The translations under genes were made by a program, and so were the position numbers. From Octopus vulgaris (lineage: Eukaryota): a DNA stretch of 64,000 nucleotides. Shown one piece after another: positions 826-62,623 of the stretch. Under the pieces are notes generated by a model that saw only the letters and a program-made list of their open reading frames with translations, did not search any database and was not told where the DNA came from. The DNA lies in assembly GCA_951406725.2 (NCBI GenBank), contig OX597815.1, positions 60,822,001-60,886,000 on the forward strand, in the 5' to 3' direction. Every line of letters begins with the position of its first letter. Position 1 is the stretch's first letter.

Positions 826-1022
<197 letters not shown>

Positions 1023-1715: not shown

Positions 1716-1770
1716 AATAAAAAGGAATTTTGTTAAATCTTCGTTCAGCTCCATTTCTTCCTACACTAAA

Positions 1771-5400: not shown

Positions 5401-5479
5401 ATCAAAAATACGAAAAAATTAACTCCAATTGATACAAATATCTCTCACCGCCTACTACGCACACCGGTACCTTCACGTA

Positions 5480-6776
5480 CGAGGGGCGTTCAATAAGTAA
5501 TGCCCCTGACCCACTTGCAGTTGTTTGATCTAGCTGAAATTTTGCATGTGCAATTATTTATATCTCTATAGATTAAGTGGCAAATTACAGCTATGAAATA
5601 ATTGCGGTTTCTGATTTACAGGTGTTTGAACTGAGTCAAGTGTGAAATGGAGCCTGTTGAGTGTCAAGCAGTGATCCGGTTTTTGTATTTGAAAGGCCGC
5701 ACAACACGGGAGACTTTTGATGAAATGAAAGTAACTTATGGTGATGATGTCCCATCATATGACCTTGTAAAACGCTGGCATCGTGAATTCAAACATAGTC
5801 GGAACTCTGTGGAAACAGCTCACAGATCTAGTCGCCCTCCCCCCTTCTGCCATTGATGAGGCATCTGTCCGTCAAGTTGAGGCTGCCATTTTGGAAGATC
5901 GACGCAAAACTATTCGCCAAATAGCCCGTGAGGTCACGATTAGAACCAGGTCTGTGGAAACTATCATTCATGACCATTTGCATATGCAAAAGGTGTCTGC
6001 TAGATGGATTCCCAGGCTGCTCACGCCTTTCCAGAAGCAAGAACGCGTCGAGTGCTCAAGGATGAATTTGGAGATGTGCCAAGAAGATGAGTCAAAATTT
6101 TTCAAAAGACTGATTACACAGGATGAAGCCTGGGTCCATCACGATGATCCAGAGACCAAAGCCCAGTCAATGCAGTGGAAGCACCGTGACTCACCTCCTC
6201 CAAAGAAGGTAAGGGTGCAGCCCTCCGCTGGCAAGGTCATGCTCACAGTCTTCTGGGAGCAGGACGGAGTAGTGATGACATATTTCCTGGCAAAGGGTAC
6301 CACAGTTACAGGAGCCTATTATGCTTCACTTTTGAGGAAATTAAGAGAAGCTATCAAAATGAAGAGGCAAGGCAAGATCAGCAAAGGCATCTTCCTCCTG
6401 CAGGACAACGCTCCGGTCCACAACTCGCGTGTCGCCAGATCAGAAGCACAGGCGTGCGGCTATGAACTCCTCCCCCATCCCCCCTACTCTCCTGACCTTG
6501 CACCCTCTGATTTTCACCTCTTCCCAGCCATGAAGTTGTTTTTGAAAGGAAAGCGTTTCCCAGATGATGCAGCCTTGATTTCTGAAGTCACGTCGTGGTT
6601 GGAGGACCAAGCTGGGGTCTTCTACAAAAACGGTCTCCAGAGCTTCATCAAACGATGGAAGAAATGCATAACTCTGGGTGGTTCCTATGTAGAAAAAGCC
6701 TAATAACTGTGCCAAGTTTCGTTGCTCTACTGCTATGGGAAGTGGGTCAGGGGCATTACTTATTGAACGCCCCTCG
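5480..6776 (+). mobile_element. Full-length mariner (DD34D) DNA transposon, 1297 bp
   Basis: Perfect 37-bp TIRs CGAGGGGCGTTCAATAAGTAATGCCCCTGACCCACTT (5480-5516 and 6740-6776). TA duplication at 5478-5479 and 6777-6778. Confidence 0.97.
5647..6703 (+). pseudogene. Mariner transposase with a single +1 frameshift
   Basis: N-terminal HTH ORF 5647-5856 joins the 5783-6703 frame across the C-run near 5835-5844. Motifs WIPRLLT, TQDEAW, QDNAPVH, YSPDLAPSD; 34 residues between the 2nd and 3rd Asp. Confidence 0.92.
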
Positions 6777-6939
6777 TACATATCTTTACTTAGAGTGATT
6801 AGTTTATTTCATTCGTCTCGTGTGAGGGGTTACCATTATTACTAATTCCCCACAACAGTATAGAATGTATGTATATATAAAGAGAGATTGATGCAGATAA
6901 ACAGAATTATACACACACACACACACACACACATACAAA

Positions 6940-8730: not shown

Positions 8731-8776
8731 GACCTGTATCACAGTGATTTCATACTTACGTACTCATCAGCAGGCC
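8731..8776 (-). ncRNA. Minimal type-I hammerhead ribozyme
   Basis: Minus strand: GGCCTG-CTGATGA-GTAC-GTAA-GTAT-GAAA-TCAC-T-GTGA-TA-CAGGTC. All three stems pair. Confidence 0.85.
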
Positions 8777-8940: not shown

Positions 8941-9173
<233 letters not shown>

Positions 9174-17336: not shown

Positions 17337-18390
17337 GTTTAGAATGGAGCAAGATAAAGTTATTTTCCAAAATACAATTACTTTGATAAATACACATTTG
17401 AAAATGGTTTTGTTTCAACCAACGGTCGTTTCATCTAACGACCTTTTCAATAACGGGTTGCATGAAATTACAACTGCGGTTTAAAATCAAATTATTATAA
17501 AAATCGAAAAAAAAACTAATATCAAAAATAACTTATGTAGAAGGGAAAAGGCCTGAATACCCAGCGTAAATAATTAGTGGTAAAATTAATAATAAGTTAA
17601 AAGATATATCCGTTTAAAAATCTTTCACGCTAAAATACAAATACATTTAGCAATACTTATGCATGCCAATCAGCCGATAATATACGTATATAAACAAAAC
17701 ATACAGTCGTTGGTGCATAGTTACATACATGTACATACATATATGGGCAAAACATAAATATATACAAATGCATATACATTTATGCACGCACACACACGCT
17801 CGTGCATAAACCTCCTGGTCTATGCCTATACAATTTAGTTGTTAAAGGTGAAGGAAAGAAAGAAAAGGAAAAATATCAGAGATTAACAAGTGTTGGGAGA
17901 AAGAAAAAAGGGAAAAGAAGAAAAGAAATGAAAAAAAAGAAACAGAAAATTAGAGAGAAAAGGGGAAAATAAACAGAGGTAGAGAGAGGAAATGATTGGC
18001 GTTCCTATAAGTTTCTAACGAAAGTTAGATACTTCGTTCAGCTTGCAAAATGCTAACATAAGGCAACATATTCGCAAATACATACCCATATATATATATT
18101 TAAAATTGAAAAAAGTTAGAAATTGATATTAATCAATTAAAACCAGTGGCCTAGCATATTAAAGAAATCTGAAGATTAAAATATTTTTACATACAAAATT
18201 TAAAGGACTGACCACTAAAAGTGGACGGTCAATATGCTAGATATAGACATCAAAATCGCCATTTTCCACAAAGAATGTGTTCTCAAATAAAAACTCAGCA
18301 CAAACCAAAGTGTAAAAAAAGCAAGACAAATGAAAATATACGAAATAATAACGATTACCTATGTACCGATCAGTTTACCCATATATATAT

Positions 18391-21247
18391 GGTGCGGATC
18401 GTGCAGATCGTACAAACCGAAATAAGGGAGGGACAGCCATCTTTATCCATGACTCCTTCTCACTTGATGCCAAGGACATATTTTCCAATGGCTATTGTGA
18501 ATCTGTATCACTATTCAGCAAGGCCAAGGACATAGTCATTGTTGGTCTTTACAGGCCTCCCCAAGCACCTTTAAAGTGCTTTGAAGAGTGCCTTAGCAAA
18601 GTCAAGTCCTTCCTTCGGAAGTACCACTCCGGAAACATACTAGTGATGGGTGATTTTAACCTCCCTCATGTGAATTGGCCCACAAATCGTCTGAAGTTAG
18701 GCAAGTGCTCTACATCAGATAGAGCAGCAGCGGAACTGCTCTTTAATCTAATGGATGAATACTTCCTGACTCAGCTAGTGCTCGAACCAACGAGTTAGAA
18801 TAAAACGATCTTGGATCTGGTATTGACCAATCACTCTAGCTTCGTTCACAGTATTTCAGTTGAAAAAACTCTCCTCTCAGATCACGACATGGTACTCTGC
18901 AATTTCAATTCCCGACATATAAAAACCAAACCAGCCAATCCCACTCCATGGCACTCATTTGATAACATAAACTTCCACAAAGCGGACTGGGGAGCAATCA
19001 GAAAGGATCTGTCTTTCATCGACTGGTCTTTTACTCTCAATTCCACCCATATTGACCCGCATGGCAGCACTTTGAAAACATTGTCACATATACATGCTCT
19101 AAACACGCTCCCACGAAATCTACTAACACAAACAGAAATCGGCTCCCTAAAAAGAAAAAACACTCATCAGGCGCATCAAAAGACTTAACAAAAAAATCAA
19201 CCAATTAAAATATTCCCACAAACAACATCCACGTTCAACAACAATGAAAAGGCTAGAGCTGGAAAAACTTCATCTGCAGAACGACATGAAAACCTCCATT
19301 GAAAATCAAAGAGCTGCGGAGGAACAGTGGGTAATCAAAAACATCAAACAGAACCCAAAAGTGTTCTATTCCTATGCAAATAAGCATAGAACCACTGTCT
19401 CACCCATTGGGCCATTGATTGACGCTAACGGCATTCCCCAACACGATGCTAAAGAAATGGCAGAAATACTGCAGAAACAATACTGCTGTCTTTAGTGTTC
19501 CCACTGATATTGACGTTAGAGAAGCGAACGAAGTTGACTCTCAACATAAAATCTCGGACATAACCTTCACTGCCACTGACATCATAGCAGCAATAAATGA
19601 GGTCAAATACTACTCTGCTGTAGGCCCTGATAGATTCCCCGCTAGTCTCCTGAAGGAATGTAGACACCAACTTGCAGTCCCTCTGACCAACCTCTGGAGA
19701 AATTCGTTAGATGCAGGTTATATACCAAAACAGTTTCTATCTCAGTCAGTCATCTCGGTTTTCAAACAGGGAAACAGATCCCTCGCACTCAACTATCGCC
19801 CAATCTCACTCACCTCCCACATCATCAAAGTGTTTGAAAGAGTGTTAAGATCAAGGATGGCTGACTTCCTGGAGACCCAGAAACTCCTAAATGCAAATCA
19901 GCATGGCTTTCGCTGTGGCAGGGACCGTCTAACACAGCTCTTACACCACATTGAAGATGTACTATAAAGCCTTGGGAACAGGTTCGAACTCTGATGTCAT
20001 ATATCTTGACTTCAGTAAAGCGTTCGACAGGGTAGACCATAATATCCTACTCTCAAAATTGGCAAATGTTGGAATCCGTGGAAAAGTTCTACACTGGATC
20101 AAGTATTTCCTGGCGAATAGAACACAACATGTTGTAGTTGATGGAGTCCACTCAAGCCCAGCAAAAGTCACCAGCGGTGTCCCCCAGGGGGCTGTCTTGG
20201 GTCCGCTACTCTTCATAATCTACATAAACGACCTTTCCATTGTCGTACATTACTGCAAAGTGAAAATATTTGCTGATGACACCAAGCTCCAGCAAATCGT
20301 CAATGAAGAAGCAGACCGAACTCAACTCCAGTCTGATCTATATGCTGTGAGTCAATGGGCAGACAGAAACAAAATGCAACTGAACGAGGGAAAATTTGAG
20401 CTGATGCATTTTGGAAGAAACTCCTCACTAAAACAGCCATACTCTCTTCCTTCAGGGAAACCGCTCACAGCCTCTAACAACATCAGAGACCTAGGTGTAA
20501 TTGTTGATGACGATCTCAGTTGGAGTGCACACATCAACAAGAAGGTCGATATAGCTCGTAGGATGAGTTCTGGATCTTAAGAACTTTCCGGTCCAGAGAA
20601 CAAGGTGTCATCATACCACTCTTCTCCTCCTTTGTACGGGCACACCTCGAATACTGCTGCCCACTGTGGTCTCCCCATACAAGACAAAACATCTCGAGGA
20701 TTGAATCACCCCAGAGAGCACTCACTAAACGAATTGAAGGCATGGCTGCTCTCGATTATTGGGATCGCCTTAAAGCCTTGAAACTCTACTCTCTCCAGCG
20801 TCGCCGTGAGCGGTACATCATTTGTACGATGTGGAGAATATACCGCCAACTTTGCCCAAACGACCTGAACATAAGCTTCAAGGTTCATCCAAGACTGGGA
20901 CCACGGGTCATACGTCCCCTGCCCAATTCAAGATTACAGCATACATATACACTACAACATACTTTCTTTTCCTCAACAGGCCCTGCCCTATTTAACATTG
21001 TCCCGAAAGAGATCAAAGAGGAACTGGATCCCATCAACTTTAAACGGAGTCTGGATAGATTCCTTCAAAGAATACCAGATAAGCCACCCATAATTGGATA
21101 CAACTCACCCAACAAAAACTCACTACTTGAATGGACCATAAGCAAAACTTGACTTAAACAGGATTCAAATAATTCTATCAGGTGGTGCTATTAAGTTAGA
21201 CATGGCTTGGACCAATCATTGGTCGAAACACATCTAAGTTTATCTAA

Positions 21248-24290: not shown

Positions 24291-24373
24291 AAGGGTGAAA
24301 AGGAACACACGAGTTGATATATATGAAAAAACAAGTCAAAATAGAAAATGCTAAAATAATTTTATAAAGAACA

Positions 24374-24417
24374 TTTCAGTACCGGTTTCGGCCATTTTGA
24401 GACCTTTTCAACTGTAA
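24374..24417 (-). ncRNA. Minimal hammerhead ribozyme with compensatory U3-A8 core
   Basis: Minus strand: CAG-TTGAAAA-GGTC-TCAAAAT-GGCC-GAAA-CCGG-TA-CTG. Palindromic helix III ACCGGT. Confidence 0.7.
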
Positions 24418-24767
24418 CGATTAAATAATTAAATTTAGAAAAATTAGAAGAAATGTTTTTTTAAAGGAATATTTGTATAGTGTTCAGATATAAGTGGCAT
24501 TCTGCCTTTCTCTGACTCCCTTGTTTGCACTTGTGTGTTCGAGGTCGATGTGAATTCTTGGTAGGGTAGAAGAAGAAGAAGGCTGATGAGGAGAGGGGTG
24601 GAAAAATTTGGGAGTGCCTTGATTGTTGTATTTTGAATGGTCAGTGACGGCTAGCAGTTGCAGTTCAATTCAGGAGAATATTTCTATTGAGAGGTTTGTT
24701 TATGGAATTTGCGTAGGTGTTTTACTAAAAAGCATTAGTGATAAAGTTAAGAGGTAGAAGGTGGAGC

Positions 24768-24863
24768 AGAAGAAGAAGAAGAAGAAGAAGAAGAAGAAGA
24801 AGAAGAAGAAGAAGAAGAAGAAGAAGAAGAAGAAGAAGAAGAAGAAGAAGAAGATGACGATGT

Positions 24864-24895
<32 letters not shown>

Positions 24896-25035
24896 TTGAT
24901 GATGATGATGAAGAAGGAGAAGAAGAAGAAGAAGGAGAAGGAGAAGAAGAAAATGATGATGATGATGGTGGTGATGATGATGACGACGATGATGATGATG
25001 ATGATGATGAAGAAGAAGAGGAAGAAGAAGAAAAC
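24768..25035. repeat. (GAA)n/(GAT)n compound microsatellite inside the PLE 3' UTR
   Basis: Directly visible. Confidence 0.95.
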
Positions 25036-25188
25036 AGAGAAGGGAGAATATGAATGGGTGAAAGTAGTGAGGTGTTGTATGAAGTTTGCATGTTATGGAT
25101 TATAGCTGTGATTGGGGCTGATTAGTAATGGATTCTTTGGAATGTAATATTTGTGTGTGTATTTCTTTTATTCTAAAGTTGAGGTATA

Positions 25189-26951
25189 TTAATCGTTTGT
25201 CGTAGACCCGTTAAGAAGTGGCCTGTATTTTGTAATAAAGAGAGTTTCTTTACTTATTCGTTGTCTCGAGGTTGTATCGTCCCTAAATTGGTAGAGGGGA
25301 AAATCCTGAAGCTTGGTGTTTTGTTGTTGGCGCAAGTATCTATGTGTTGGCTAAAAGCTATTTTTCTGTTTTGGGGAATTTTTATCTGGGATCTGTGCAG
25401 GGCCATTCTTTTACGCAAACTATTTTTTGCTTGGCCTATGTACTGCTCTTGACACCCGGAGCAGGTTAGTGAGTATATTAGGTTCTCCGAAGCACATGTG
25501 AAGTTGCTTTTCACTGTAAACCGTTGTCCCTGTTTGAAGGAGAACTCTGATCCCTCAATTAGATAGTCGCATATCCCGCAATTGGGTCTTCCACATTTTT
25601 TTACTGTCGGCTTCTGTGTTGAAGAGTGAATTCGGGCTTGTGTTAGGAGACTTTTCATGGATTTAGGCTGTCTCTTGCTTTTTATGATCGTGTGTGTTTG
25701 GAGGATTGTGTTCATTCTGTGGTCTTTTTTTAGGAGGGGCATGTTGTGGAGGATGGTGCCGAAGGCTTCGTTATTGAGAGGGTTGTGTGTGGAGATGTAT
25801 GGTAAGGCTTTTGGTCGTAAGTTTTTCTTTGATTTGGGATGTCTCAGTTCCTTGATGTTAAGTTGAAGGGCACGTTGAATGCACTTGTCAATAAGTGAAG
25901 GTGGATAGTTCCTGGTGATAAGGGTATCTTTTAGTTCTTGTAGTCGTGTGTCTCTGGTGTTTGCATTAGAGACTATAGTGCATATCCTTTTTGCTAGATT
26001 GAAGGGGATATTCATCCTGGTGTGTCTGGGGTGGCATGAATTGAATGGAAGATATTGCTTAGAGTCTGTAGGCTTATAATATATGTCTGTTTCTATTACA
26101 TTATTAGGTTTTTTAATGAGGATATCGAGGAAGGGGAGTAGTTGCTGGCTATATTCCATCGTGAATTGGATGTTTACGTCCAGTCCGTTTAAAATTTCCT
26201 GGAATTCTATGAGTTTTTCTATATTTTTATGCCAAAGAATGAAACAGTCATCTAGATATCTCTTCCAGTTGTTTTCTATGTAGATGGAGAAAGGGCTGCC
26301 ATATCTTTCTAGAACCTTACGATACAGACTGATCTCTAGATATCCTATGACTAGGTTGGCAAAGGAGGGGGCCATTCGTGTACCCATCGCAGTCCCCGAT
26401 TTTTGTCGGTAGAAGTTGTCATTGAAGGCGAAGAAGTTATTTTCCAGGATGAATTTAACCCCTTCTATCACGAATTCTTTTTTGATGCGATGTGGTAGTT
26501 CGTTGGCGTGATTCTCTAGCCAGAATTGGATTGCCTCTAGTCCTAGGTTGTGGGGGATATTGGAGTAGAGGTTGACTACATCGAAGGATACCAGTATGGT
26601 GTTTTTGTTTATAGTATTCGGTAGGTGATTGAGCATATCCAAGTCGTCCCTTATATAGCTTTTGACATGTTTGAGGAGTGGTTTTAACAGGGTGTCTAAA
26701 ACGTTACTGAGGCGGTGGGTTTCGCATGCGGGACCTGCTATTATGGGTCTCAATTTGAGGTCATTAGGATTAGGGACTTTAATTATTTTGTCTGTAGCTA
26801 TCTTGCATGCGTTGCTTATTTTCTCACTTTTGTGTATCTTAGGTATACCGTAGAATTGGCTGGTTTTACTTGTGAAATTGGTCATATAATCATATTCTTT
26901 GTCGGTGAGCCCTGCTTTGTATGGGTTTAACATGGATTTTAGTTCCCTCAT
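25189..26951 (-). CDS. PLE polyprotein fragment: reverse transcriptase + GIY-YIG endonuclease
   Basis: 565-aa open frame with FYGIPKIHK, LRPII, SFDVVNLY, GTAMGTRMAP, WKRYLDD, FLD, YYKPTD, CGRPNCGIC, NLIYSLTCSGCQEQYIGQ. The true C-terminus (RISKETLFITKYRPLLN) is in another frame after the G-run at 25296-25299; stop near 25189. N-terminus missing. Confidence 0.9.
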
Positions 26952-27295
26952 TATTTTTTGTTGACTGTAGTTTTGTGCCTTTTCATATATATATATAATA
27001 TATATATATATTTATACACACACACACACATATATATATAAGCACATATACATATATCTGTCTATTTATCTGTGTGTGTGTGTGTGTGTGTGTATGCATG
27101 TATGTAAGGAATTTTATACGAGCAACAGAGTCGAAAGACCCTCACGAAGCATCTACAGCGAGCTCAGGAGAAACCCGAAGAGAGAAGGAATAGACTTGAT
27201 GATATTCAAACACAAGTTTCTGTCGCTCGGACTCAGAAGACACCTGAGCGTAAGATGCATCGATTAAATGATAAGCGCATAAGATTCAGGAGACA

Positions 27296-28857: not shown

Positions 28858-29346
28858 TTATATATATATATTATAAACATAGACACGCGAATTCGTGTCC
28901 GGGAAACATCTCTTCCTTTCTCTCCATCTCTCTCTCTCTCTCTCTCTCTTGAAATTCATACATGCCCCCTTGTTAGTTGTGATAGTTATGTATTATCGTA
29001 CGAATTGGTGATGTGTCTCCATTCATGCTGGGGTCCTGGTGTTTCACCATATGTGTTGTCACCAACACACAATTCAATTTTTTTATATTATCTAAGTCTA
29101 TGAAGTATATTTGGAATACAGGACAATATAATGGATTTTACACATAACTATTATGGATTATTACAGAAGAGTTTCCAAGGAAGCATATATGGATTTAAAG
29201 ACTCTCATACTAAAGTGTTCTTACAAAAATCAAAAGTAGTAATTTTTAATTTTCAATTTATATTTCAAACAAACACCATTTTATCATATTACTTCATATT
29301 TTAAAAAAACTACCATTCGATATATTATACAAAATTCAAATTTTAT

Positions 29347-29436
29347 ATCTCTGAAGAGCAGAAGAATTTTCTATAAACGCTTATCAATATAGGATTACAT
29401 TATAGGGACAGCACTTCTGTGAAACGATCATAAGAT
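29347..29436 (+). ncRNA. Type-I hammerhead ribozyme
   Basis: ATCT-CTGAAGA-GCAGAAG...CTTCTGT-GAAA-CGATCA-TA-AGAT. Helix III is one substitution from the palindrome CGATCG. Confidence 0.75.
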
Positions 29437-29610
29437 GCTTTAAAAACTTAATCCAAAACTTTTGAACTGCCATATACATTACATATTTATACTTATACGT
29501 ATTTAAATATATATATATAATTATATTTTTAATACAACAATCATTTTACACACATATATATATTCCTGAAGAATTTTCTAATATTGATTTCCTGATATTA
29601 ATAATAATAT

Positions 29611-30606: not shown

Positions 30607-30869
30607 ATACATACATACAACATACATGCATACAAGCATATATATATATTTAAATATGAAATAGTAGCAGCTCTAGTATGATAAATATCATTTATCACAT
30701 ATACTTAACGTATATGTGGTTAATGATATTCATTATACTATAGCTGCTTCCATTTCAGATTTTAATTTATTCATACGTATGCATTTTCCGGGCTTACCTA
30801 TATATGGTTTTGCATGCCATGAGCATATAAGATGTGGACTAGCGATGTCCTTCCGATTCTGTAGAATAC

Positions 30870-33114: not shown

Positions 33115-34270
33115 TATCAATAATAAAGTGATTGTTTCTTATCAGGAACAAAATGTTTTTTTAGGACTGCTATAGAAGTGCTCAATTAAATGAGACAAAT
33201 ATATCAAACTATGGTTGCAGAACAAACAAATATAAGGTCATCCATTATTATCTAGAATGGTCCATTGTCTCTACAATCCCAAATTTCAAAGGGAATATTA
33301 GCAAGTGTAAGCTGTGCATAAGGGAATCCCTTACAATCCTTAGGTGTTATGGACCACACACACTGAATAAATTTACTGACGTGATTCCTTTTTGCATCCA
33401 TAAATTTCATCTACCTTCTTAAAAGTGTATAGGAATAAAATAAGTTGTAGCAAGTAAATAATTTAGCTCTTACATGGAATTGAAACCATCGAGGTTGAAT
33501 TTAATTTAATACACCCATTAACATCGGGGGGTTTTTAAGGTGCTTTTTATTTATTTTTTAAAAACTTTTTTTACTGTTTTAATTCTTTCATTTGGACTGG
33601 TCTAAGCATGACTTCTTAAATAAGAAACCACGCAATATTGTGTTAGGTTTGGTTAAGGAGGTCTCACCCTGGTACGTGATGTCTGTTTCTTTCTTTTTCC
33701 CCTGACGAAGGAGTAATTATTATGATGCACCCTCATGCATTAAATACAGTGATGTACTCCTGAAATGGCCATAGGGAATGTAAATATGGTTTCTTCGTTT
33801 TTGCTTGGACACTGGCTTTTAACTATAGGTTTCCCTTATCTTGAAAAGTAATTTTTAATCGAAAAAATTTCTAAAGGATGAACTTTTTTCTTACCTTATA
33901 TATTATATATTACTTATTTATATGCTTCCTATATATATGTATGTTTATATCCTTTTATATATCTATATATTTATATATTTCTTTATATCGTTATGTATTT
34001 ATTATTCTAGGTGTTGTAATGTTTAAAAAAAATGTTTTAGTCGCTAAAGTATTAATCGTTAACTTTTAACAGCGATGAACTGTATTCACAAATTTTTCTT
34101 GTATTTTTGTTATATGCTTGTACTGATGAGTTGTGTTTCATCTTCTGTGATTTTATACATGTATATTCTATGTGAAAGAAAAAGCTTTATGTGATTAAAT
34201 GCTCGAGATATGAAATGTTACGTGGATGACCTTATATTTGCTGGTTCTGCAACCATAGTTTAATATACAT
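33115..34270 (+). mobile_element. PLE 3' fragment (GIY-YIG C-terminus + tail) with an inverted tail copy at its 5' end
   Basis: 33243-33422 translates to LEWSIV..CKLCIRESLTIL..LNKFTDVIPFCIHK*. 33200-33245 is the reverse complement of 34223-34268. HHR at 33697. Confidence 0.8.
33697..33778 (+). ncRNA. Type-I hammerhead ribozyme
   Basis: TTCCC-CTGACGA-AGGAGTA...TACTCCT-GAAA-TGGCCA-TA-GGGAA. All stems perfect; palindromic helix III. Confidence 0.88.
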
Positions 34271-37308: not shown

Positions 37309-37369
<61 letters not shown>

Positions 37370-37580
37370 TATGTGAAATAGAAAGATGAATAATCTTGTA
37401 GTAGATTAATCAAAAGTTTAACCGATACCTTGGTAGCAAAAATCACAGCAGTAAACAGCACGGTTGGAGGTACAACCATATGGTGTTGCAACCGTGCGTT
37501 GGTGCGGATAATTGAAATTAAAATATTATTGGTGAATTGAAGAAATGGAGCTGAACGCAGATTGAACAGAAATCGTTTTA

Positions 37581-37669
37581 TTTCATTCTACACGTGTTTC
37601 GAAAGGCACAATTTACCAAAATGAGATTGAATAATGGGACCATATTGTGTCTTTCTCTTCAGGAAGAAA
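37581..37669 (-). ncRNA. Type-I hammerhead ribozyme (left arm)
   Basis: Mirror copy of 37879-37967. Confidence 0.85.
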
Positions 37670-37878
37670 TAGGAAATCCGTTGGAAAAAACAAAAACAGA
37701 ACAGAGGCGGAGCAAAACAAATCGAACTAGGCTCCTAAGAGCCCATGGCAAAACTGATTATCAGTGTATGTTCTCAACATACACTGATAAACAGTTTTGC
37801 CGTGGGCTCTTAGGAGCCTAGTTCGATTTGTTTTGCTCCGCCTCTGTTCTGTTTTTGTTTTTTCCAACGGATTTCCTA

Positions 37879-37967
37879 TTTCTTCCTGAAGAGAAAGACA
37901 CAATATGGTCCCATTATTCAATCGGATTTTGGTAAATTGTGCCTTTCGAAACACGTGTAGAATGAAA
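37879..37967 (+). ncRNA. Type-I hammerhead ribozyme (right arm)
   Basis: TTTCTTC-CTGAAGA-GAAAG...CTTTC-GAAA-CACGTG-TA-GAATGAAA. Confidence 0.85.
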
Positions 37968-38021
37968 TAAAACGATTTCTGTTCAATCTGCGTTCAGCTC
38001 CATTTCTTCAATTCACCAATA

Positions 38022-42060
<4,039 letters not shown>

Positions 42061-42444
42061 TCTCTCTCTATATAAACGGCAGTTTGTCTGTGCGTGTTTC
42101 TGTGTGTCTGTTTGCTTGTACCCTCACCCTGACCACATCTTTCAACCGATTCTGATGAAACTTGACACACACATAGCCCAATGTCATAATTCAAAACTAA
42201 CGCAGCGAAAATTTTGAAAAGTTCCCCCTGTTCTGAAAAAAATCGATAAATTCGACATGGGGTCGAGAATCAGAAACACGAACCACAAACTGTCTAGGGG
42301 ACGCAACTCCACCTTTTTTAAATCTCAAAAAAAATTTACCATCATTTTTTTCCATTTTTTTGCTAATTTTTGGCTATAACTCTCTAAAAATGCTTTATAG
42401 TTATTTCCCTTACAAACCTGAGCAACGCCGGGCGATACTGCTAG
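42061..42444 (+). mobile_element. Non-autonomous Helitron (shared 3' module, different 5' module)
   Basis: A|TC start, GAGCAACGCCGGG subterminal hairpin region, CTAG|T end. Last about 120 bp match the copies at 35612 and 48208. Confidence 0.85.
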
Positions 42445-47810: not shown

Positions 47811-48208
47811 TCTTTATATAAGAGTGAAGTTGTGTGGTGTCTGTCTCCTACGATTTAGATTCCTAACTACTCCCACATTTTGCGGTGCAGTTTAACCAAA
47901 AGCGGGTATCTTATAGTCGTGATTCATATCGAGCCCTTCTGGGTATTAGCGTGCGTCTACGATGAGTCTACGATTTAAAAAAAATTTACCATCATATTTT
48001 TCCATTTTAATGCATTTTTTCGCTTTCATATAAGGGAAGTAACTCTCTAAAAATATCTACGATGTGTCAATGATTTAAAAAGAAATTTACCTTAATTTTT
48101 TTTCAATTTTTAATGCATTTTTTGGCTATTTTTTGGCTATAACTCTCTAAAAATGCTTATATAGTTATTTCCCTTACAAACCCGAGCAATGCCGGGCGAT
48201 ACTGCTAG
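47811..48208 (+). mobile_element. Non-autonomous Helitron
   Basis: A|TC start, CCCGAGCAATGCCGGG hairpin, CTAG end. Homologous to 35612-36006. Confidence 0.85.
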
Positions 48209-48271
48209 GCAGGTGGAATACAAACAAACAATTGTATTAGTATGGCGCTCAGGAAATATAAATAAAACAAG

Positions 48272-48309
48272 TCTTTAACGTATCGAGCCTACGCTCTTCA
48301 ACAGAAAGA
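48272..48309 (-). ncRNA. Hammerhead-like motif in the 3' pseudo-LTR (A6U; GAAA mutated to GATA)
   Basis: Copy of 52506-52543 with one extra core mutation. Confidence 0.45.
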
Positions 48310-48924
48310 TACACAGAGAAAAAAACACAGAAAGAAGGAGAGAAGAAAAATATGCGTGCAGAAGCTAGCGAATCAACATGGCGATCTGATTTCAGCCAGA
48401 AGTCAAAGATCAAACATGAGACGCAAGAGCGAAATTAGGGGAGATAATAGGGTTGAATGACCTCGCTCCAACATAAGAGTGTGTGTGTGTGTATGAGAAG
48501 AGTGTGTGTGTGTGTATGAGAGAGTATTAGTGCGTATGAGAGGTCTGGACGTGTGTATGTATATATGATGTGATGTGTAAAGTCGTATGGTGTAGCGTAG
48601 AGAGAGGAGAAGAGGGGGGAGGGGAGGTAAGGGGGGGGAGAAAGAAAGGGGAGAAGAGGGGAGAAGATGAGGGGGGTGGGGAAGGGGGAGAAGGAAGGAG
48701 AGGAGAAGAGGAAGGGAGAGGAGGAGGGAGGATAGAGGGAGAGGGGGGAGAGAGAGAAGGGGAGTGAGGGAGCAGATAGGAAGAGGGAAGGGTAAGAGGG
48801 AATAAGGAGGGAGGGAGAAAGAGGGAAGAAGGGAAGAGGAGTAGGGGTGAAAGGATGAAGGACTCAAGAGAAGTAGGGGTCGGGGGAGGTTAGATGAGGA
48901 GGGGTGAGAGGGGGGGTTAGATGA

Positions 48925-51813
48925 GGAGGGGGGGAGTTGAGACCAAATGGCGTATAAGAGCGAAGAGAGAAGATTAATTCCTGTTCACGGCGCAAACGGG
49001 AATCCGGATGGTCTCTGTGTAACCGAACACAGACAGGTGTTGCAAGGAGTGACCGGTGGAGCGGAAATGGCGGGAGGCCGGTGTGTCGTTCGCAAGACGG
49101 ATGTCACGAAGGTGTTTCGCGAACCGGTCAGCCAAGCGGCGTCCCGTTTGTCCGATGTACAGGGAATGGCAGAGAGAGCAAGAGACGCAATAGATAATAT
49201 TGCTGGAGGTGCAGGTGAAGGAGTTGATGATGCGATAGGGTCGATGATGGGTGCCAGTGAGGAGGGTGGTGTTGGAGAGGTAAGGGCAAGTGCGGCAAAG
49301 TGGGCGGGAGCTGGGGAACGAGCTAGGTTGGGAGGTAGAGTCAGGGAAGGAGCTATGGACCAAAAGGTCTCGAAGGTTATGGGCTCGTTTGAAAGAGGGG
49401 AGGGGTCGGTTAGGGAAGAGGTGTAAAGTGGACGGGTCGGACTGGAGATGACGGAAAGCTCGAAGAATGGTGCGTTGGAGAGGTAGGGTCGTGGGTGTGT
49501 TAAGTGAGGGGAAAAGGGAGGCGGGAGACTACAGGGTGGGTTCGGGGAGAGAGAGCAGATACACGGTCCACGGAACGTGCTCTGGCAAGGGCGGTGTGGA
49601 TAGTGGTGAGGGGTATCCACGTAGGATAAAGTGGTGAGCCATACGTTGAGACTGAGTCTCAAAGTCATGGTCGTCACTACAGAGCCTACGTAGACGGAGG
49701 AATTGGGAATAGGGGATGGAAAGCTTGGTGTGTTCTGGGTGGGAGGAAGAGAAGTTGAGGTATGAGTGTGAGTCTGTGTGTTTGTAGTGAATGGAGGTGG
49801 TAAGAGTGGAGTGAAGAATGCTAACCGAAATGTCGAGGAAGGAGACAGAGGTGTTGGAGATAGTGGAAGTGAAGTGGAGGGCTGGATGGAAAGATTGAAC
49901 GAAAGAGAGGAAGGAATCTAGATGTTCACGAGAGAGTGAGGTGGCACCGATAATGTCGTCAATGTAACGACCATATAGTTCAGGAGTGGGACCAGTGAAA
50001 TTAGAGAATATTTGGGCCTCAACATAGCCAACGAACAGGTTCGCATAGTTGGGGCCCATTCGCGTTCCCATGGCCACTCCCGAGACCTGATGGTAGAACT
50101 CGCCCGTGAACGAGAAGCAGTTAAGAGTAAGGACAAGTTCGGCCAGACGAATGAGTGTGGAGGTGTCAGGTTCAGGGTTGGAGCGGAGGTCAAGAAAGTG
50201 TTGAAGTGCCTGCAGTCCTTCGTGGTGAGGGATAACGGTATAGAGGCTCTGAATGTCCATAGTAAAAAGGATTTTGGAGGAGCCGGGAGAAAAGGAGAAA
50301 GAGTTGAAAAGCCGGAGAGCATGGTTGGTATCGTGGATGTGGGAGGGAAGAGATGCCACTAGGGGGGCAAGGACACGGTCGAGGTATTTAGAGATGAGCT
50401 CCGTGGGGCAGTTACAGGCGGAGATGATGGGGCGGCCAGGGTTGTTGGGTTTGTGGATTTTGGGGAGGAAGTAAATGGTGGGGGTACGTGGGGTTCGCAC
50501 AATTAGGTTGGATGCGGTGTGGGGGAGACGGGAGGACGAGATGAGGTCGCGGACAGTAGAGGATACCGTCTGTTGGTAGCTACGTGTGGGGTTAGAGGAC
50601 AGAGGGGAGTAGAAGGAGGTGTCATTGAGTTGGCGGAGAGCCTCGGCCCTGTAGAGGTCCGCGGGCCACACCACTACAGCTCCATCCTTGTCAGCCGGTT
50701 TGATGATAATGTCAGCGTGCCGTTGGAGGGAACGAAGAGCCGAGAGCTCAGCCGGGGAGATGTTGAGGCGGCGTTGGCGCCTGGAGAAGTTGAACCACTC
50801 CAATGTACGCTGACAAGCGCCCGCGAAAAGATCCACTGCTAGGAACTGGCCGGGGGCAGGCGTCCACAGGGATGGTCGGCGGCCCAGGTCAGTGAAGCAG
50901 TCCTCTTCGTTGGATGTGGGTGGTGAGTCGCGGTAATGCGCACCCAACCGGACGCGGCGCACAAAGCTGTGGACATCAACTCGCGTCTGGAATTCCTTAC
51001 AGGATGGAGTGAGGGGGATGAAACGTAGACCCCTACTAAGGACGGAGCGTTCCGCCGCAGAGAGGGGAAGATCGGGGGGAATGGTAACAACAGACGGAAG
51101 TGGAGAAGGGGTGGGTGGAATAGAAGTAGGAGGGGTGGTAGGGCTCGTGGAGGTCTGAGGGGGAGGGATTGGGGAGGTGTGTGGGGGTGGTTGGGAGGGG
51201 CAGTAGGGTTAGGTGTAGGTGGATGGAGCCTATCAGGAGGGGAGAAGGGGTTGTTGGGAGGGGCAGTGGGGTTAGGTGTGGGTGGATGGAGCCTATCGGG
51301 AGGGTAGAAGGGTAGTGGAGGAGTTGGGGTGGTGGCGTCGGGTGTGGTGGAATGGAGGAGTAATTGGAGTTTACGAAGTTTGGTATCGGAAAGAAATTGA
51401 TGGAAGAGGTGATTCAAATGGATAATGAAGCGTAGCGTGTTTGGAGCATAGAAAGGCGGCAGAGAGGAGAAAAACGTGAGGAAAGCAGGAGGAAGAAGGC
51501 GGTTGATGGTATGTAGTTTAGAGAGATTGGAGCGAATGGTGGCCCGCATAAGGCGATAAGATGTAGTGCGGAGTATGGGTAAGATGGAAGAATCCGAGTG
51601 GAGAGCAGGGTGGAAGTGGAGGCGGAAACCTTTAGGGATGAGTCGGTGATGTAGGCAGCGGCTTAGGAAAGAGACATGGCTAGAGAAGCGGTTTTTTTAA
51701 AAAAGAAGTAGAGAGAGATTAATGGACGGCTGAAAACAGTTTAGGGGAAGAGGGCGGAGGTGATCCTTCAAACGGTGGTGGATAGTGAGGAGGTAGGACC
51801 TACAATCAGGCAT
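48925..51813 (-). pseudogene. PLE RT + GIY-YIG polyprotein, several frameshifts
   Basis: IIKPADK, YFLPKIHK, GRPII, MDIQSLY, GVAMGTRMGP, YGRYIDD, SFLD, RPLCRTC, NIIYCVSCSLCHSLYIGQTGRRL. Confidence 0.92.
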
Positions 51814-52505
51814 GATGGGATAGCGAAAAAAAGGGGAAAAAACAAACGTTCGAAAAAAAGCAACAAAAAATAATCGTATGAAAAAACTAGATAAAAAAAG
51901 CGGTAGGGACAGAAATAAAGGCGGAGAAGATGGGGCAAACGGAAAAAGGAAAGAAAGAAAGGAAGCAGAGAGAGGGGGAGGCAAAAAAGGGGGTGGTGCA
52001 GGCAGAGGAAACAGAGTATGGACATCAAGAGAAGGAAGAAACGACGGAAAGGAGGACAAAATTGCAGGAAAATGTGGAAAGCATGAAATGAATGTAAAAA
52101 AAGCGGTAATATATGAGAAAATAAAAATAAAACGAACGAGACAGTTTATGCGAACAAGTTCAAGGTTGAGAGTTCAAGGTTAGAAATGTATAGATGTCGT
52201 GGTATATTTTTTAAGGATTTCACATCAATAACAAAGTCACTTTGATCCGTGAAAGAGAGGTGCAGCCAATGGTAAGTATCCAAGGGGTAAAGAAAATCCA
52301 ATGTAGAGGTAAGAGTTGATAGTGGTGTTGGTAGAATATAGGATGAAAGTGAGACCACGTGAGCGCGTAATATATAACGGGAAGCTTTATGAAAATAGAC
52401 AAAAGACGAAGGCAGGTTTACGGAAATAAACAAAAGACGAAGGCAGGTGGAATACAAACAAACAATTGTATTAGTATGGCGCTCAGGAAATATAAATAAA
52501 ACAAG

Positions 52506-52543
52506 TCTTTAACGTTTCGAGCCTACGCTCTTCAACAGAAAGA
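52506..52543 (-). ncRNA. Minimal hammerhead-like motif in the 5' pseudo-LTR (A6U variant)
   Basis: Minus strand: TCTTT-CTGTTGA-A-GAGC-GTAG-GCTC-GAAA-CG-TT-AAAGA. Confidence 0.6.
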
Positions 52544-53658
52544 TACACAAAGAAAAAACACAGAAAGAAGGAGAGAAAAAAATATACGTGCAGAAGCTAG
52601 CGAATCAACATGGCGATCTGATTTCGGCCAGAAGTCAAAGATCAAACACGAGACGCAAGAGCGAAATTAGGGGAGATAATAGGGTTGAATGACCTCGCTC
52701 CAACATAAGAGTGTGTGTGTGTGTATGAGAAGAGTGTGTGTGTGTATGAGAGAGTATTAGTGCGTATGAGAGGTCTGGACGTGTGTATGTATATATGATG
52801 TGATGTGTAAAGTCGTATGGTGTAGTGTAGAGAGAGGAGAAGAGGGGGAGGGGGAGAAAGAAAGGGGAGAAGAGGGAAGAAGATGAGGGGGAAGGGGAAG
52901 GGGGAGAAGGAAGGAGAGGAGAAGAGGAGGGGAGAGGATGAGGGAGGATAGAGGGAGAGGGGGAGAGAGAGAGAAGGGGAGTGAGGGAGCAGAGAGAAAG
53001 AGGGAAGGGTAAGAGGGAAGAAGGAGGGAGGGAGAAAGAGGGAAGAAGGGAAGAGGAGTAGGGGTGAAAGGATGAAGGACTCAAGAGAAGTAGGGGTCGG
53101 GGGGGGAGGTTAGATGAGGAGGGGTGAGAAGGGGGGTTAGATGAGGAGGGGGGGAGAGTTGAGACCAAATGGCGTATAAGAGCGAAGAGAGAAGATTAAT
53201 TCCTGTTCACGGTGCAAAAGAGAATCCGGATGGCCTCTGTGTAAGGACAAACCGAATACAGACAGGTGTTGCAAGGAGTGACCGGTGGAGCGGAAATGGC
53301 GTGAGGCCGGTGTGTCGTTCGCAAGGCGGACGTCACGAAGGTGTTCCTCGGACCGGTCAGCCAAGAGGCGTCCCGTTTGTCCGATGTACAGGGAATGGCA
53401 GAGGGAGCAAGTGACGCAATAGATAATATTGCTGGAGGTGCAGGTGAAGGAGTTGATGATGCGATAGGGTCGATGATGGGTGCCAGTGAGGAGGGTGGTG
53501 TTGGAGAGGTAAGGGCAAGTGCGGCAACGTGGGCGGGAGCAGGGGAACGAGCCAGGTTGGGAGGTAGGGTCAGGGAATATATATATATATTAGACAAAAT
53601 GAGATGACAAAGCCAAGGCTGTGAGCTTCCAGGACATTAATAAGGGAAAATATATATA

Positions 53659-53707
53659 GCCTTACAGCTGTTTCTGGGATTTTATGGGTAATCCATTCAT
53701 CAGAGAC
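53659..53707 (-). ncRNA. Type-I hammerhead ribozyme (left arm)
   Basis: Minus strand: GTCT-CTGATGA-AT-GGAT..ATCC-CA-GAAA-CAGCTG-TA-AGGC. Confidence 0.75.
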
Positions 53708-54807
53708 AATGTGAGATGGTTAAATAGAGGTAAATATTTGAGTTCGAAATCTGGAATTATTGCGGAAAAGGATGAGATAGGGAATATAGGAGATAAGAAA
53801 ATGATAGTGAAAATAAAATATAAAACGTTGTAGTTCCATTATTCGAGTAAAGTGGTGTACAGAAGTGGTAAGAAAAAGTTTCCTGTACATGGTATGCTCC
53901 ATACTTTGGTACAGCTCCATACTTTGAAATGTAGTTCATTTTTAGTTATTTCAAAGTATGGAGCTGTAGAAACTGTTTTGTTCATTCGAAGGGTCTTGTG
54001 GTGTGAATGAAAATTTGAGAATGTATTGGTAATATTTGTGGATATATGGGGTGGGGGGGGGGTGTATTATTAGAATGAGGAGATAGGTCAAAATGAAGAG
54101 AGTAGCGACATGAAGAGAAAATGAGAAAAGAGAGAAAAAATAAAATTAAAAAATAATCCATTGTAGATGATCTAATGTAACTTATAAATGCACCGCCCTC
54201 AACACATTACACAATTCTACAGCCATATATATAGGATCAACCATAAATTTCAAACAGTGATATACCACTCATCACAATTCTTTTAGATACGAGAAACACA
54301 ATAAATCTACAAAACTCGCCAGTCACATACATCATCTCAAAAGTAGAAATATTTCTTACATCTTGTCATGGTCCTTGTTAAATTCAGGGTTTCCATAACA
54401 AGGTCAACACTTAGCCTGTAAGCAATGCCTAAAAGAGGTATTCAACATATTAAAACACAACTCCTGGACACTACTAACTAAATATAATGAGGCTCTAAGT
54501 ACATGCAACCACCGCTTTTTTCATACCTTCAAATTTTATCACAAATCTAAATGCAAACTAAATAATCACACTGCATATATCCACAACACCCTTTAGGTAA
54601 TCCTCACCAACCGTACTTAACTTTCCTTTATCTCTATTTTAATTTTTAATCTTTAATTTTTTAACTCCCCTATCTTACTTTAAGGATCTCAGTCATTTAA
54701 TACTACATATATGGACATAGAAGTGGATACATGTGTGTAAATGTGTGTGCATGTATTTTAATGTATGTATGTATTTGTATGTCGGTATATGTGTGTATGT
54801 ATGTATT

Positions 54808-54860
<53 letters not shown>

Positions 54861-55809
54861 ATATGTATGTATATATACGTGCATATGTATATACAAATAT
54901 ATATGAGTGTGTGCATGTGTATATATCTATACGTAAGTACCTGTAAGTGCGCATACGTGTGACTATGTGTAAGTGCGTGTGCTCCTGCGCGTATGTATGT
55001 GTGTATGCATGTATGTGCATATGTACACATGTATATGTATGCGTGTGCGTGCGTGCGTATGTCATTATACCTTCTTTCCTCCTCTCTGATTCCTACTTAT
55101 CACACTAATCTATCACATACGTCTATTTACAGAAATTTGCCACCCTTGTATTCTTCCCTTCACTTTAAATGTTACTCTCACCCATACCTTTTCTCTACCC
55201 ACCCCTTAATGCAGCCCTATCATATCACCCCTACTCACATATCTCACACTTATTCACTCTTTACCTTCTCTTCTCATCCTACCCACCCCTAACTCACTCC
55301 TCTCCCATCCTCCCCTCACATTATCTTGACCTCCAACTAACACTTCACTTCTCACTTCTTTCACCCTTTTTCACATTTTTTCACTCTTTTCATTTATTCT
55401 TCCTCTTTTTTCTCTCTCTTTATTTTAAAAATTTTTATCTTATTTTTTCTCTCTTTCTTCCTCTGATTTTCTCTTATGTCTTCATTTTGATCTATCTCCT
55501 CATTCTAATCATACACATGTCTGCCACCCCATTCTCAAATTTCCATTCACACTACAAAACTCCTTCGAATGAGCAACACAGAATTCACATCTCCATACTT
55601 TGAAATGACTAAACATTAACTTCTATTGGAACTTTTAACCACTTCTATACACCACTTTACTCGAATAATGGAACTTCAACGACAACATTTTATATTTTAT
55701 TTCTACTTTCATTTTATTATTTCCTTCTATATTCCTTATTTCCTCCTTTTCCATAATAATTCCATATTTCGAACTCAAATATTTACCTCTATTTAATCGT
55801 CTCATATCA

Positions 55810-55855
55810 TCTCTGATGAAGGGATATCCATAAAATCCCAGAAACAACTGTAAGA
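55810..55855 (+). ncRNA. Type-I hammerhead ribozyme (right arm)
   Basis: TCT-CTGATGA-A-GGGAT..ATCCC-A-GAAA-CAACTG-TA-AGA. Confidence 0.75.
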
Positions 55856-55932
55856 CTATATCTATATTTTTTTCCTTATAAATTGTCCTGAAAACTCCTC
55901 ACAGTCTTGGCTTTGTTATCTCATTTTGTCTA

Positions 55933-58779: not shown

Positions 58780-59262
58780 GTATACAAATACGTATGAGAT
58801 GGCTTGGACATGTTAGTCGTATGGAAGCTGGCAGAATCCCCCAGGACATACTCTACGGAGAGCTTGCTAGGGATACTAGGTCTGTTGAAAGGCAGTTCTT
58901 ACGATACAGAGATGTTTGCAAAAGGGACATGAAGGCCTGCGACATCAATATTTGCAACTGGGAAGCGGTTGCCAGCAACCGTGGAGATTGGAGACGTACC
59001 ATAAAAGAGGAAACACAAAGGAGTGACAGAGGGAGATAGGAGAAATGGAAAGACAAGAAAAGACGTCAACAAGAAACTAAGACATTACAACCAGCCAGGC
59101 AAAGTCATTGCTACATTTGCGGCACCTGCCAGAGTGTGTTTGTCCAGGATAGGACTACACAGCCACAGCAGGAGATGTATTAGAACATGAAATGTAAAAG
59201 CCGGACTAGATTATTTTATGCACAACTTCATTGTCTCCCAAGACAAAAGGATGCCAACAGCA
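58780..59262 (+). mobile_element. RTE-clade LINE 3' fragment
   Basis: RMRWLGHVSRMEAGRIPQDILYGEL..RYRDVCKRDMK..WEAVASNRGDWR, then a remnant RIGLHSH zinc finger. Confidence 0.85.
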
Positions 59263-59269: not shown

Positions 59270-59418
59270 TACATTATTTACATTATTTACATTGGACGGA
59301 CATGTCATCATCTTGTTTGTTGTTTGTACAAACAAGATGAGGACACATATCCGTCTAATGTAAATAATGTAAATATGTAAATAATGTACAGAATTCCTCA
59401 TCTCTAAAATACAGAACA

Positions 59419-59421
<3 letters not shown>
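59270..59421. repeat. Imperfect fold-back of a PLE extreme 3' tail
   Basis: 59270-59320 pairs with 59328-59390. Same sequence family as 60260-60310 and 61714-61751. Confidence 0.7.
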
Positions 59422-59453
<32 letters not shown>

Positions 59454-59651
59454 AGTAGGTGAATGAATTATCATAGTCTGGATAATTTGGTTAATCGATA
59501 CCTGGGTGGCAAATTCACGTCAGAAAACACGGTTGAAGCAACATGCCAAGGGCAAAACCCCGTGTTCCTGTGTGGAAATTTGTGTGCTTTTGTTTTATAT
59601 GAATAAATGAAAAGAATGGAGTCGAACGAAGATTTTAACAAAATTCCTTTA

Positions 59652-59734
59652 CTTTCGACACATGTTTCGAAGACTGCATATTCTTAATTCCGAAGGAATA
59701 AAGTGTGCATTATACCGTCTTCTCTTCAGGAAAG
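59652..59734 (-). ncRNA. Type-I hammerhead ribozyme (left arm)
   Basis: Mirror of 59808-59890. Confidence 0.88.
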
Positions 59735-59807
59735 ACAAGGAGCCTCTATCAGTCTCACGACGAACAAAAACTTTTTGTTCTTCGTGAGTCTGATAGAGGC
59801 TCCTTGT

Positions 59808-59890
59808 CTTTCCTGAAGAGAAGACGGTATAATGCACACTTTATTCCTTCGGAATTAAGAATATGCAGTCTTCGAAACATGTGTCGAAAG
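59808..59890 (+). ncRNA. Type-I hammerhead ribozyme (right arm)
   Basis: CTTTC-CTGAAGA-GAAGAC...GTCTTC-GAAA-CATGTG-TC-GAAAG; GUC triplet. Confidence 0.88.
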
Positions 59891-59938
59891 TAAAGGAATT
59901 TTGTTAAAATCTTCGTTCCACTCCATTCTTTTCATTTA

Positions 59939-60028
<90 letters not shown>

Positions 60029-60308
60029 TGTATGTATGTATGTATGTATGTATATGATATCTACCACGTAAACTAGGATGAAAAGAATTGGAGAGAGATA
60101 TAGTACATATGTCTTTTATGCAGGGGTTCCTTGAGACACGTAATTTATTTTAAGGGATACGCAAGGGTAAAAAGGTTGAGGAACACTGGGTCAGGTTAAT
60201 AGTGCTATCATATATTCTGCTATAACCGCCGTTACGAAGGATTTCTGCAGAAGTTGATCTACATTTTTTACAGTTGACAGATATTTGTCCTCATCTTATT
60301 TGTTGTTA

Positions 60309-60352
60309 ATACAACGTTTCAGCTGATATACCCTCCAGCCTTCATCAGGTGT
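60309..60352 (-). ncRNA. Minimal hammerhead ribozyme
   Basis: Minus strand: ACAC-CTGATGA-A-GGCTG..CAGCT-GAAA-CG-TT-GTAT. Confidence 0.7.
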
Positions 60353-60402
60353 CTTGGGGAAATTTTGAACCTGGGTTCTCATTCCTAAGGTATTTTTCGA
60401 TG

Positions 60403-61200: not shown

Positions 61201-62623
61201 TAGGTCACTTAATAGATTGTTATTGAGCTTGATCATGTCTTCGTGATGGGAATCATGATCGCGACTTATATTATTTGCTTGATGTTTTAGGCACTGAGCA
61301 ATCCCTCTCTTTACACTGTATGGATGGTGGGGGTTGAAGTTGAGGAATCGTCCAGTAAAGGTCCGCCTGCGGCATACGGATGTCCTGAATCCATACTTGG
61401 TGCGTGTTATTAATTCGTCCAGGAATGCTAGCTGATTGTCTTTTTTCTTTTTCCATTGTGAACTGTATGGATGGCTTTATTGAGTTCACATGATCTAACT
61501 GCACTTGGACATACTGAACTACCTACTTCAGTATGAACACTGATATATATCGACAAGAAGAGGGTTTAGCTATGGGTTCACCATTATCACCGATAATATC
61601 CAATATATACATGGAATACTTCGAGAATATGGCTTTAGGATCAACATCACTAAAACCAACCCTATGGCTGCGATATGCTGATGACACCTTCATACTCTGG
61701 TCCCACCAAGAAGATGTACATAATTCTTCATCTCTTAAATATAGAACTGTAGAGGTAGATCTGTTTGTTAAAAGGAGTAGCTTCATAAAATTAGTATATC
61801 TAGCATAGAGATATAATTAGGAGGCATGACTGGACGAAAACTTTTACGGAGGCGGAGAGTGAAGACAATGTGGAATTAATGCTAAGAAAAAACAATTCAT
61901 TGATTCGTGGAAGAAAACGTGGAGACACTACTAAAATTTGACACATAACGTGCATGCATGTGTGTGTGTGTGCGTCTGCGTGCTCGTGTGTGTGTGTGTG
62001 CGTGTATGTGTTTGTGTTTGCGAGCGTGCATGTGAGTGTGTGTGTATGTGTGTATGTGCGTGTGAGTGTGAGTGAGCATCCTACTCCGTAGGACTCACTT
62101 TAGTCTTGGATACATTTCATACCATGTACTTGAATAATATCGATGGTAAAGGCATCAATGCCCCAACTTCTATTTTCGTATTCCGCTGCCTCAAACTTCA
62201 AGTACAGCAAAACAGAATTGAAATGAAAGCGAGCTTTTTTATTGACATAGTCCGCACGAGGGCGATCAGGCACGAAAATTTCAAACAAAGAAAATGATGG
62301 AGCCTGTAGGCGGTGGCCAAATTACCAGCAAGAGTCACGAGCCTGACACGGTCGAAAGCTTTACTGAAGCCAACAGTAATGGCACTGCGTTCGGAAGAGC
62401 GGGAAATAAGTAGCGCATGATAATAGAGAGACAGTCACCGATAAGCTTGAAGTCTATGGAAATGGTTCTGCTTTTTAATCTAAACAGAAAGTGATCTGTG
62501 GTAATTGCAATAGATGTTGGTGTGTAAGTTTTTAGTATGTCTGACAGTTTGTCTATCTGCCTGATCCTACCTATATATATGTGTGTGTGTGTAATATATG
62601 TACACACATACAGGCACATACCT

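Follow-up and report, generated by a model that had tools for sequence, protein, structure and literature searches.

A mirror-image repeat of about 500 bases, designated copy B, lies at positions 59451-59946 of the window, the 64,000-nucleotide stretch of DNA analyzed here. The window is animal DNA rich in microsatellites, which dominated the repeat search. The two arms of copy B stand head to head about a fold centre at 59771, within a short A/T-rich self-complementary stretch (59762-59780). The left arm (59596-59770, minus strand) represents the truncated 3' end of the element and reads away from the centre into a 145-nt tail (59451-59595, minus strand), which extends the sense strand of the element at its 3' side and is present at this end only. 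The right arm (59772-59946, plus strand) is inverted, has no tail and ends 61 nt past a predicted ribozyme cut site. The arms depart from perfect reverse complementarity at 3 of 175 positions, two of which are close to the centre (10 and 18 nt away), and computed folding gave a near-perfect 175-bp hairpin of -325 kcal/mol (z = -33, 100 dinucleotide shuffles). The repeat sits in a (TA)n target, represented by the left flank (59420-59450) and by (TA)n followed by (TATG)n on the right (59947-60055); no target-site duplication was readable within these flanks.

Each arm carries a candidate type I hammerhead motif, one per strand, and both face outward from the centre. On the plus strand (59808-59890), helix I would pair 59808-59812 with 59886-59890, the core (59813-59819) and the GAAA box (59874-59877) enclose a long helix II (59820-59873), and helix III consists of 2 bp with a self-complementary loop. 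Cleavage is predicted after C59885, where an initial annotation of this DNA had correctly placed the end of a GUC; the two related copies described below have GUA. The minus-strand motif (59652-59734) has its core start at 59729 and a predicted cut after C59657.

Other repeats crowd the surrounding sequence. A 97-nt palindrome (59277-59373) lies immediately left of copy B, and to its right, at 60348 (region 60240-60400), the minus strand has a hammerhead-like motif; by eye, these two apparently belong to one further small repeat family. Just left of copy B is also a LINE fragment (58800-59240), which we take from its appearance to be an RTE-type 3' end, and other LINE fragments occur at 18352-21152 and 40924-42123. 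A DDE transposase frame (5771-6703) is situated between 40-bp inverted ends at 5477-5516 and 6740-6779.

Two relatives of copy B were found in the window. Copy A (37369-38025) is a second fold-back, with a tail of about 153 nt, arms of about 250 bp that differ by 4 mismatches, (TA)n on both sides, and hammerhead cores at 37662 (minus strand) and 37886 (plus strand). The initial annotation had described copy B as having the same architecture, with 175-bp arms, 22 kb from copy A; the layout holds, and the arm length of 175 bp applies to copy B only. The homology motifs quoted in support are present in both copies (tail, 37423/59496 and 37459/59528; arm, 37545/59616) and nowhere else on the plus strand of the window. 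Copy C (1022-1770, plus strand) is a single, uninverted and tail-less member between two (TA)n runs, with its hammerhead core at 1636. The position of the arm end was constant in the three copies (61, 66 and 63 nt past the cut site). Upstream of the core, in contrast, the length of element sequence varied, being 42 nt in copy B, 112 nt in copy A and 614 nt in copy C, the last measured to a left boundary inferred from the (TA)n run.

Between the hammerhead and the arm end, the three copies are 67-75% alike, and the tails of copies A and B, which are restricted to one end in both fold-backs, share 57% identity, as compared to at most 53.4% in 300 shuffles. Arm identity is about 98% within a fold-back and 67% between copies A and B, and the fold centres differ, which supports the proposal that the two fold-backs originated independently. 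Subfamily-specific changes occur on both arms in each fold-back, indicating that each inversion postdates the split between subfamilies. A DNA element with terminal inverted repeats (MITE or Foldback) was rejected, as the ends are unequal by 145 nt, the centres vary and one copy is uninverted.

Contigs matching one arm plus the tail were numerous in four runs (747, 1285, 382 and 81, counts that in view of contig depth do not measure copy number) and most were 90-99% alike. The copy family is large and diverse. Where contigs left the matching region, (TA)n was found at the arm end in 20 contigs of run X3 and 3 of run X9, and loose ends also carried upstream sequence of the copy C type. Three contigs with only 2-3 differences from copy B (X1 record 8, X9 record 31 and X8 record 20) extend beyond its centre, with no turn-back listed at that point, and we therefore read copy B as a truncation of a longer element. 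Together with the differing fold centres, these contigs make it likely that the palindrome is a by-product of insertion.

The fold-back joint of copy B was seen in none of the DNA contigs of the four runs, and long (TA)n flanks are fragile and difficult to assemble. Both facts would suit a single end of a Penelope-like element (PLE) mirrored later by a DNA event, such as a template switch or a hairpin-capped break at the TA run, or an assembly artefact. We consider such an origin quite unlikely, because the mirror arm in two independent copies ends at the family-wide terminus, the same terminus is used by the uninverted copy C and by many contigs, the arms carry 3 and 4 mismatches, and the layout is that of a published PLE unit.

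A strict hammerhead scan of the window returned 6 sites, 5 of which belong to the family of copies A, B and C, and none in any of 30 block shuffles. All 11 positions of the type I core (CUGANGA / GAAA / NUH) are identical in the three copies, and the core is clearly better conserved than its flanks: outside it, identical columns amounted to 11/41 upstream, 27/55 in helix II and 36/65 downstream. Among the listed variants in the four runs (40 of 57 rows) no core position varied other than N7. As judged from its sequence, the family has type I topology around the core, with helix I open.

The stem strings given in the initial annotation (GAAGAC/GTCTTC, GAAAG/CTTTC and GAAGGCT/AGCCTTT for stem II; CATGTG, CACGTG and CATATG for helix III) occur as quoted. 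Stem II, however, is not a helix of 5-7 bp. It comprises 12 pairs in register, irregular and topped by a distal hairpin, with 11 paired in each copy and 54-55 nt between the core boxes. Six of the 12 pairs are changed on both sides across the three copies. Over the whole structure, 90.8% of cells are paired and 10 of 29 pairs show two-sided change; shuffles averaged 4.3, with none of 500 reaching 10, and slid controls gave 0-2, for a structure drawn from the same three sequences on which it was tested. Random substitutions at an equal number of sites kept as many pairs with P of 0.001-0.024 (six ordered comparisons, two transition rates). Five of seven stem variants in the runs keep or gain a pair, and the other two break one unless the partner changes, the variants being unphased and taken from the same 40 of 57 rows.

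Helix III was found to pair in a different manner from the one proposed. Only 2 pairs form within one molecule; the varying letters sit in the loop, and a second molecule is needed for them to pair. In all three copies the octamer of helix III is self-complementary (-6.0, -10.3 and -7.0 kcal/mol), and the pair at the octamer centre (U-A, C-G and U.G) has changed on both sides, so that helix III covaries only as an intermolecular palindrome. The majority variant in the runs converts the U.G of copy B into a Watson-Crick pair. The argument that compensatory change points to selection on the ribozyme fold thus stands within three copies, at a level short of R-scape-grade proof, and such selection likely acted on the parent retroelement and not on the fold-back.

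The hammerhead junction was the MFE structure in ribozyme-sized pieces of copies B and A, not of copy C, and the hammerhead-sized piece of copy B was no more stable than shuffles (z -0.87). For the full isolated arm, predicted pairing probabilities were 0.05-0.06 for helix I and 0.01-0.02 for helix III, and inside the fold-back every hammerhead helix had a predicted pairing probability of 0.00. Any single transcript of the fold-back contains one hammerhead and its full complement. The fold-back is therefore predicted to be catalytically silent; if it does silence its own ribozyme, selection is likely to have acted on the parent element.

A hairpin of this length and stability might instead be a host-kept source of small RNAs or an editing substrate. 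In a whole-window Rfam scan, no hammerhead appeared among the 150 listed of 247 matches and the fold-back region gave generic hairpin models only; Rfam's only strong scores were to generic miRNA-hairpin models, below their thresholds. The locus of copy B displayed no sign of conservation, and covariation between dispersed copies points to a mobile parent rather than to the copy B site. We consider a host function very unlikely.

The presence of a hammerhead on each strand, and of two fold-backs within 22 kb, also raised the idea that the palindrome is itself the propagating unit, a non-coding retrozyme- or viroid-like element whose transcripts from either strand are cut by the outward hammerheads and re-inserted as a unit. 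Strand-changing joints were found in two contigs, both from run X8, and would fit this proposal if X8 consists of RNA, which is a guess. We nevertheless regard it as very unlikely. The centres differ, subfamily changes occur on both arms of each copy, copy C is uninverted, close relatives extend past the centre, and the hammerhead helices are predicted not to form inside the fold-back; animal retrozymes, moreover, are head-to-tail tandem repeats (bioRxiv 10.64898/2026.07.22.740005, in its available part), unlike copy B.

No remnant of a PLE reverse transcriptase (RT) or endonuclease was found near copies A, B or C within the window, and no frame with RT and GIY-YIG domains, as an autonomous PLE would have, lies in or beside them. 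Coding frames were likewise absent from the tail and arms of the copy family, and the possibility that the tail encodes the start of an ORF was thus not supported. The PLE frames that do occur in the window (25.2-27 kb and 49-51 kb) belong to other families and bear other, short hammerheads, unlike those of the copy family. The first is a 5'-truncated Neptune-like PLE inserted in (TA)n at 24300-27011 (minus strand), in which a 585-aa frame encodes RT and GIY-YIG domains and includes a CxxxxCxxC linker. Its tail is only about 26 nt long, and it was rejected as the parent because it has a hammerhead of its own (near 24380-24415) that is short and decayed. The second is a partial-tandem PLE at 48207-53577 (minus strand) in which the RT/endonuclease frame (49025-51064) is broken; it also has pseudo-LTRs and, at 52538, a minimal hammerhead whose core reads CUGUUGA.

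The window holds further sequences of related kinds. A head-to-head pair of another family (53591-54099, minus strand, and 55479-55932, plus strand) is 73% alike and 1.4 kb apart; each member has a short hammerhead (53703 and 55813) and the same end point before (TA)n. One more hammerhead-like motif lies at 8770 (minus strand). Short palindromes were seen at 8943-9065, 30644-30770 and 53910-53968, two of which adjoin (TA)n, and at 61288-61718 two short fragments of a PLE-like RT lie side by side, facing opposite ways.

Searches outside the window were also made. The few named eukaryotic relatives of a PLE protein encoded in the window are from bivalve molluscs, and no PDB relative of that protein was found. 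A PLE profile search recovered no relative among viral contigs and three loci among genome contigs, two of them with short hammerheads and none with a long helix II. Animal-type PLE sequences in bacterial genome bins (L007, L008 and L009) are likely host contamination. L009 has pseudo-LTRs and a hammerhead at each end, with a hammerhead just before a terminal (TA)n, a layout like that of the copy family. The family pattern had no match in viral contigs, and six metagenome matches to it were judged to be chance, as they had neither helix II nor a BLAST match. Family motifs gave no match of note in the available portion of the Naiad/Chlamys/Hydra supplement (PMC8557442). Naiad_Ovul and the Hydra HHR table of this supplement showed no match to the copy family when compared by eye.

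Taken together, we consider copy B to be a dead, 5'-truncated insertion of a PLE 3' end (pseudo-LTR), placed head to head in (TA)n, with a probability of roughly 0.8. The two fold-backs show an inverted, 5'-truncated head-to-head copy and a tail at one end, and all three copies have a (TA)n target and variable 5' truncation. Known PLE biology suggests how such a structure could arise. A PLE-encoded RT that carries a GIY-YIG endonuclease would nick the (TA)n target, and cDNA would begin on uncut element RNA at two sites, one at the end of the tail and the other 145 nt inward, at the end of the arm. The accessible text of Frangieh et al. (PMC11167929) describes a PLE protein that cuts and extends both target strands and starts reverse transcription at two RNA sites bracketing the tail, using uncut RNA. 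Each cDNA would pass the hammerhead and stop early, and the two products would then join at a short self-complementary stretch.

The products could be joined if both target strands acted as primers, or if one cDNA snapped back on itself; both routes fit the copies. Arm mismatches were concentrated near the centres (two of three within 18 of 175 nt in copy B, and two of three events within 28 of 250 nt in copy A; P about 0.03 for each fold-back, with cut-offs chosen after the fact). This clustering is a hint that the template already contained imperfect hairpins, and it tips the balance slightly towards snap-back rather than two-ended priming. The parental hammerhead would act as a dimer held together by the palindromic helix III, and its cleavage would be slow; in copy B, the hammerhead is predicted to be tied up by pairing with the mirror arm. 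Dimer-acting PLE hammerheads with palindromic helix III have been described (PMC4209133, PMC6765202 and PMC3088659, each in its available part), including PLE hammerhead dimers by Lünse et al., as cited in the review PMC6765202.

The tail contains two predicted hairpins common to copies A and B. All 14 pairs are kept, 4 of them with two-sided change; this covariation was not significant for two sequences (40 of 500 shuffles matched it), and the folding energy of the tail was within the range of shuffles.

The length of helix II was a recurring feature. By sequence, the boxes are 54-55 nt apart in the copy family and a long helix II occurs in two unrelated families in the window. A hammerhead motif of unrelated sequence at 33684-33796 (plus strand, 33702) has its core boxes 53 nt apart, its helix III is a perfect palindrome, and the predicted fold is the junction. 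The surrounding 1.1 kb is bounded by (TA)n runs and has inverted ends of 39 bp (33206-33244 and 34223-34261). At 29335-29450 (plus strand, 29351), a hammerhead-like motif with a long helix II has 63 nt between boxes and TA-rich sequence about 60 nt downstream, and is weaker than the others. A model built from copies A, B and C detected the 33702 motif at an E value of 0.007, which is rough, and 29351 was absent from the listing.

These motifs could be viewed as an overlooked class of PLE hammerhead, in which a long covarying helix II (53-63 nt, three unrelated families in 64 kb) escapes standard descriptors and is combined with a palindromic helix III that pairs two template RNAs; a dimeric RT would then prime both target strands on the two RNAs, at sites 145 nt apart. 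If so, two templates would be represented in each fold-back, and the arms of some fold-backs should belong to different subfamilies. X8 record 20, a 418-nt fold-back contig with arms 16 and 2 letters different from copy B, fits a two-template origin, but may be chimeric. Naiads make inverted copies without canonical hammerheads (PMC8557442, available text), which argues against this proposal, and we consider it quite unlikely.

As the by-product of a known class of retroelement, copy B matters little on its own. Its modest practical interest is that the long helix II leaves a high-copy family under the Rfam threshold and outside the 7-17 nt spacer of a published hammerhead core search (PMC8557442, in the part available), so that counts of PLE ribozymes may be too low. 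From the long structured tail one would predict that reverse transcription starts at two sites, about 145 nt from each other, and young fold-backs such as copy B could serve to distinguish snap-back from two-ended priming in PLE insertion.

We compared the copies with known systems as these are described in the accessible parts of the sources cited. Non-LTR animal retrozymes share with the copies their non-coding nature, a type I hammerhead and kinship to PLE pLTRs; they are arranged as head-to-tail tandem monomers, whereas the copies are either single or paired head to head, the pairs having ends of unequal length and centres that vary. Against Rfam Hammerhead_1 (RF00163), the best match was an arm of copy B, with all core boxes aligned (19.9 bits, E 0.014). 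This is under the gathering score of 34 because of a 50-nt insert, and copies A and C had no match.

Metazoan PLE hammerheads (min-HHR and variants with a short palindromic helix III; Cervera and de la Pena, PMC4209133) were also compared. Their families are rich in covariation, helix III is palindromic and the activity measured in vitro is low; dual minimal hammerheads occur on opposite strands 100-700 bp apart. The copies share with them covariation within the family, type I topology, an intact core, a short helix I, the G10.1-C11.1 pair (G.U in one copy), a palindromic helix III suited to dimers, and opposite-strand pairs at 100-700 bp. Helix II of the metazoan motifs has 6-8 bp and a short loop, in contrast to the 12-pair helix with distal hairpin seen here, and the copies, unlike these hammerheads, have no unpaired base before helix II. 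A precedent for a long loop II exists in PLE-X1 of spike mosses (PMC8557442 supplement).

Two features, the 54-55 nt helix II domain and the 145-153 nt one-sided tail, depart from published descriptions. In the open literature, no report was found of the copy family, of a PLE tail near 145 nt or of a hammerhead class with a 12-pair helix II; subscription papers, Repbase and the 2014 supplements may hold some. The recurring mechanism that the initial annotation had suggested from two fold-backs is borne out as a pattern, but one already published as the PLE inverted-copy-plus-tail insertion, and the fold-back itself is likely a familiar by-product of PLE insertion. Craig et al. (PMC8557442) describe PLE insertions that begin with an inverted, 5'-truncated copy, carry a tail of 30-40 bp on a single end and show a (TA)n bias, and Arkhipova et al. 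(PMC3846280) report head-to-head PLE arrangements with junction palindromes, for which self-priming was proposed. Compared with the units of endonuclease-positive PLEs (Penelope/Poseidon, Neptune, Nematis and Hydra; PMC8557442, PMC3846280, PMC8969392), the copies differ in their tail of 145-153 nt, as opposed to 30-40 nt, and in having no adjoining ORF. They share with these units the head-to-head inverted truncated copy, the tail at one end, the (TA)n target, a hammerhead near the 3' end, the junction palindrome and variable truncation.
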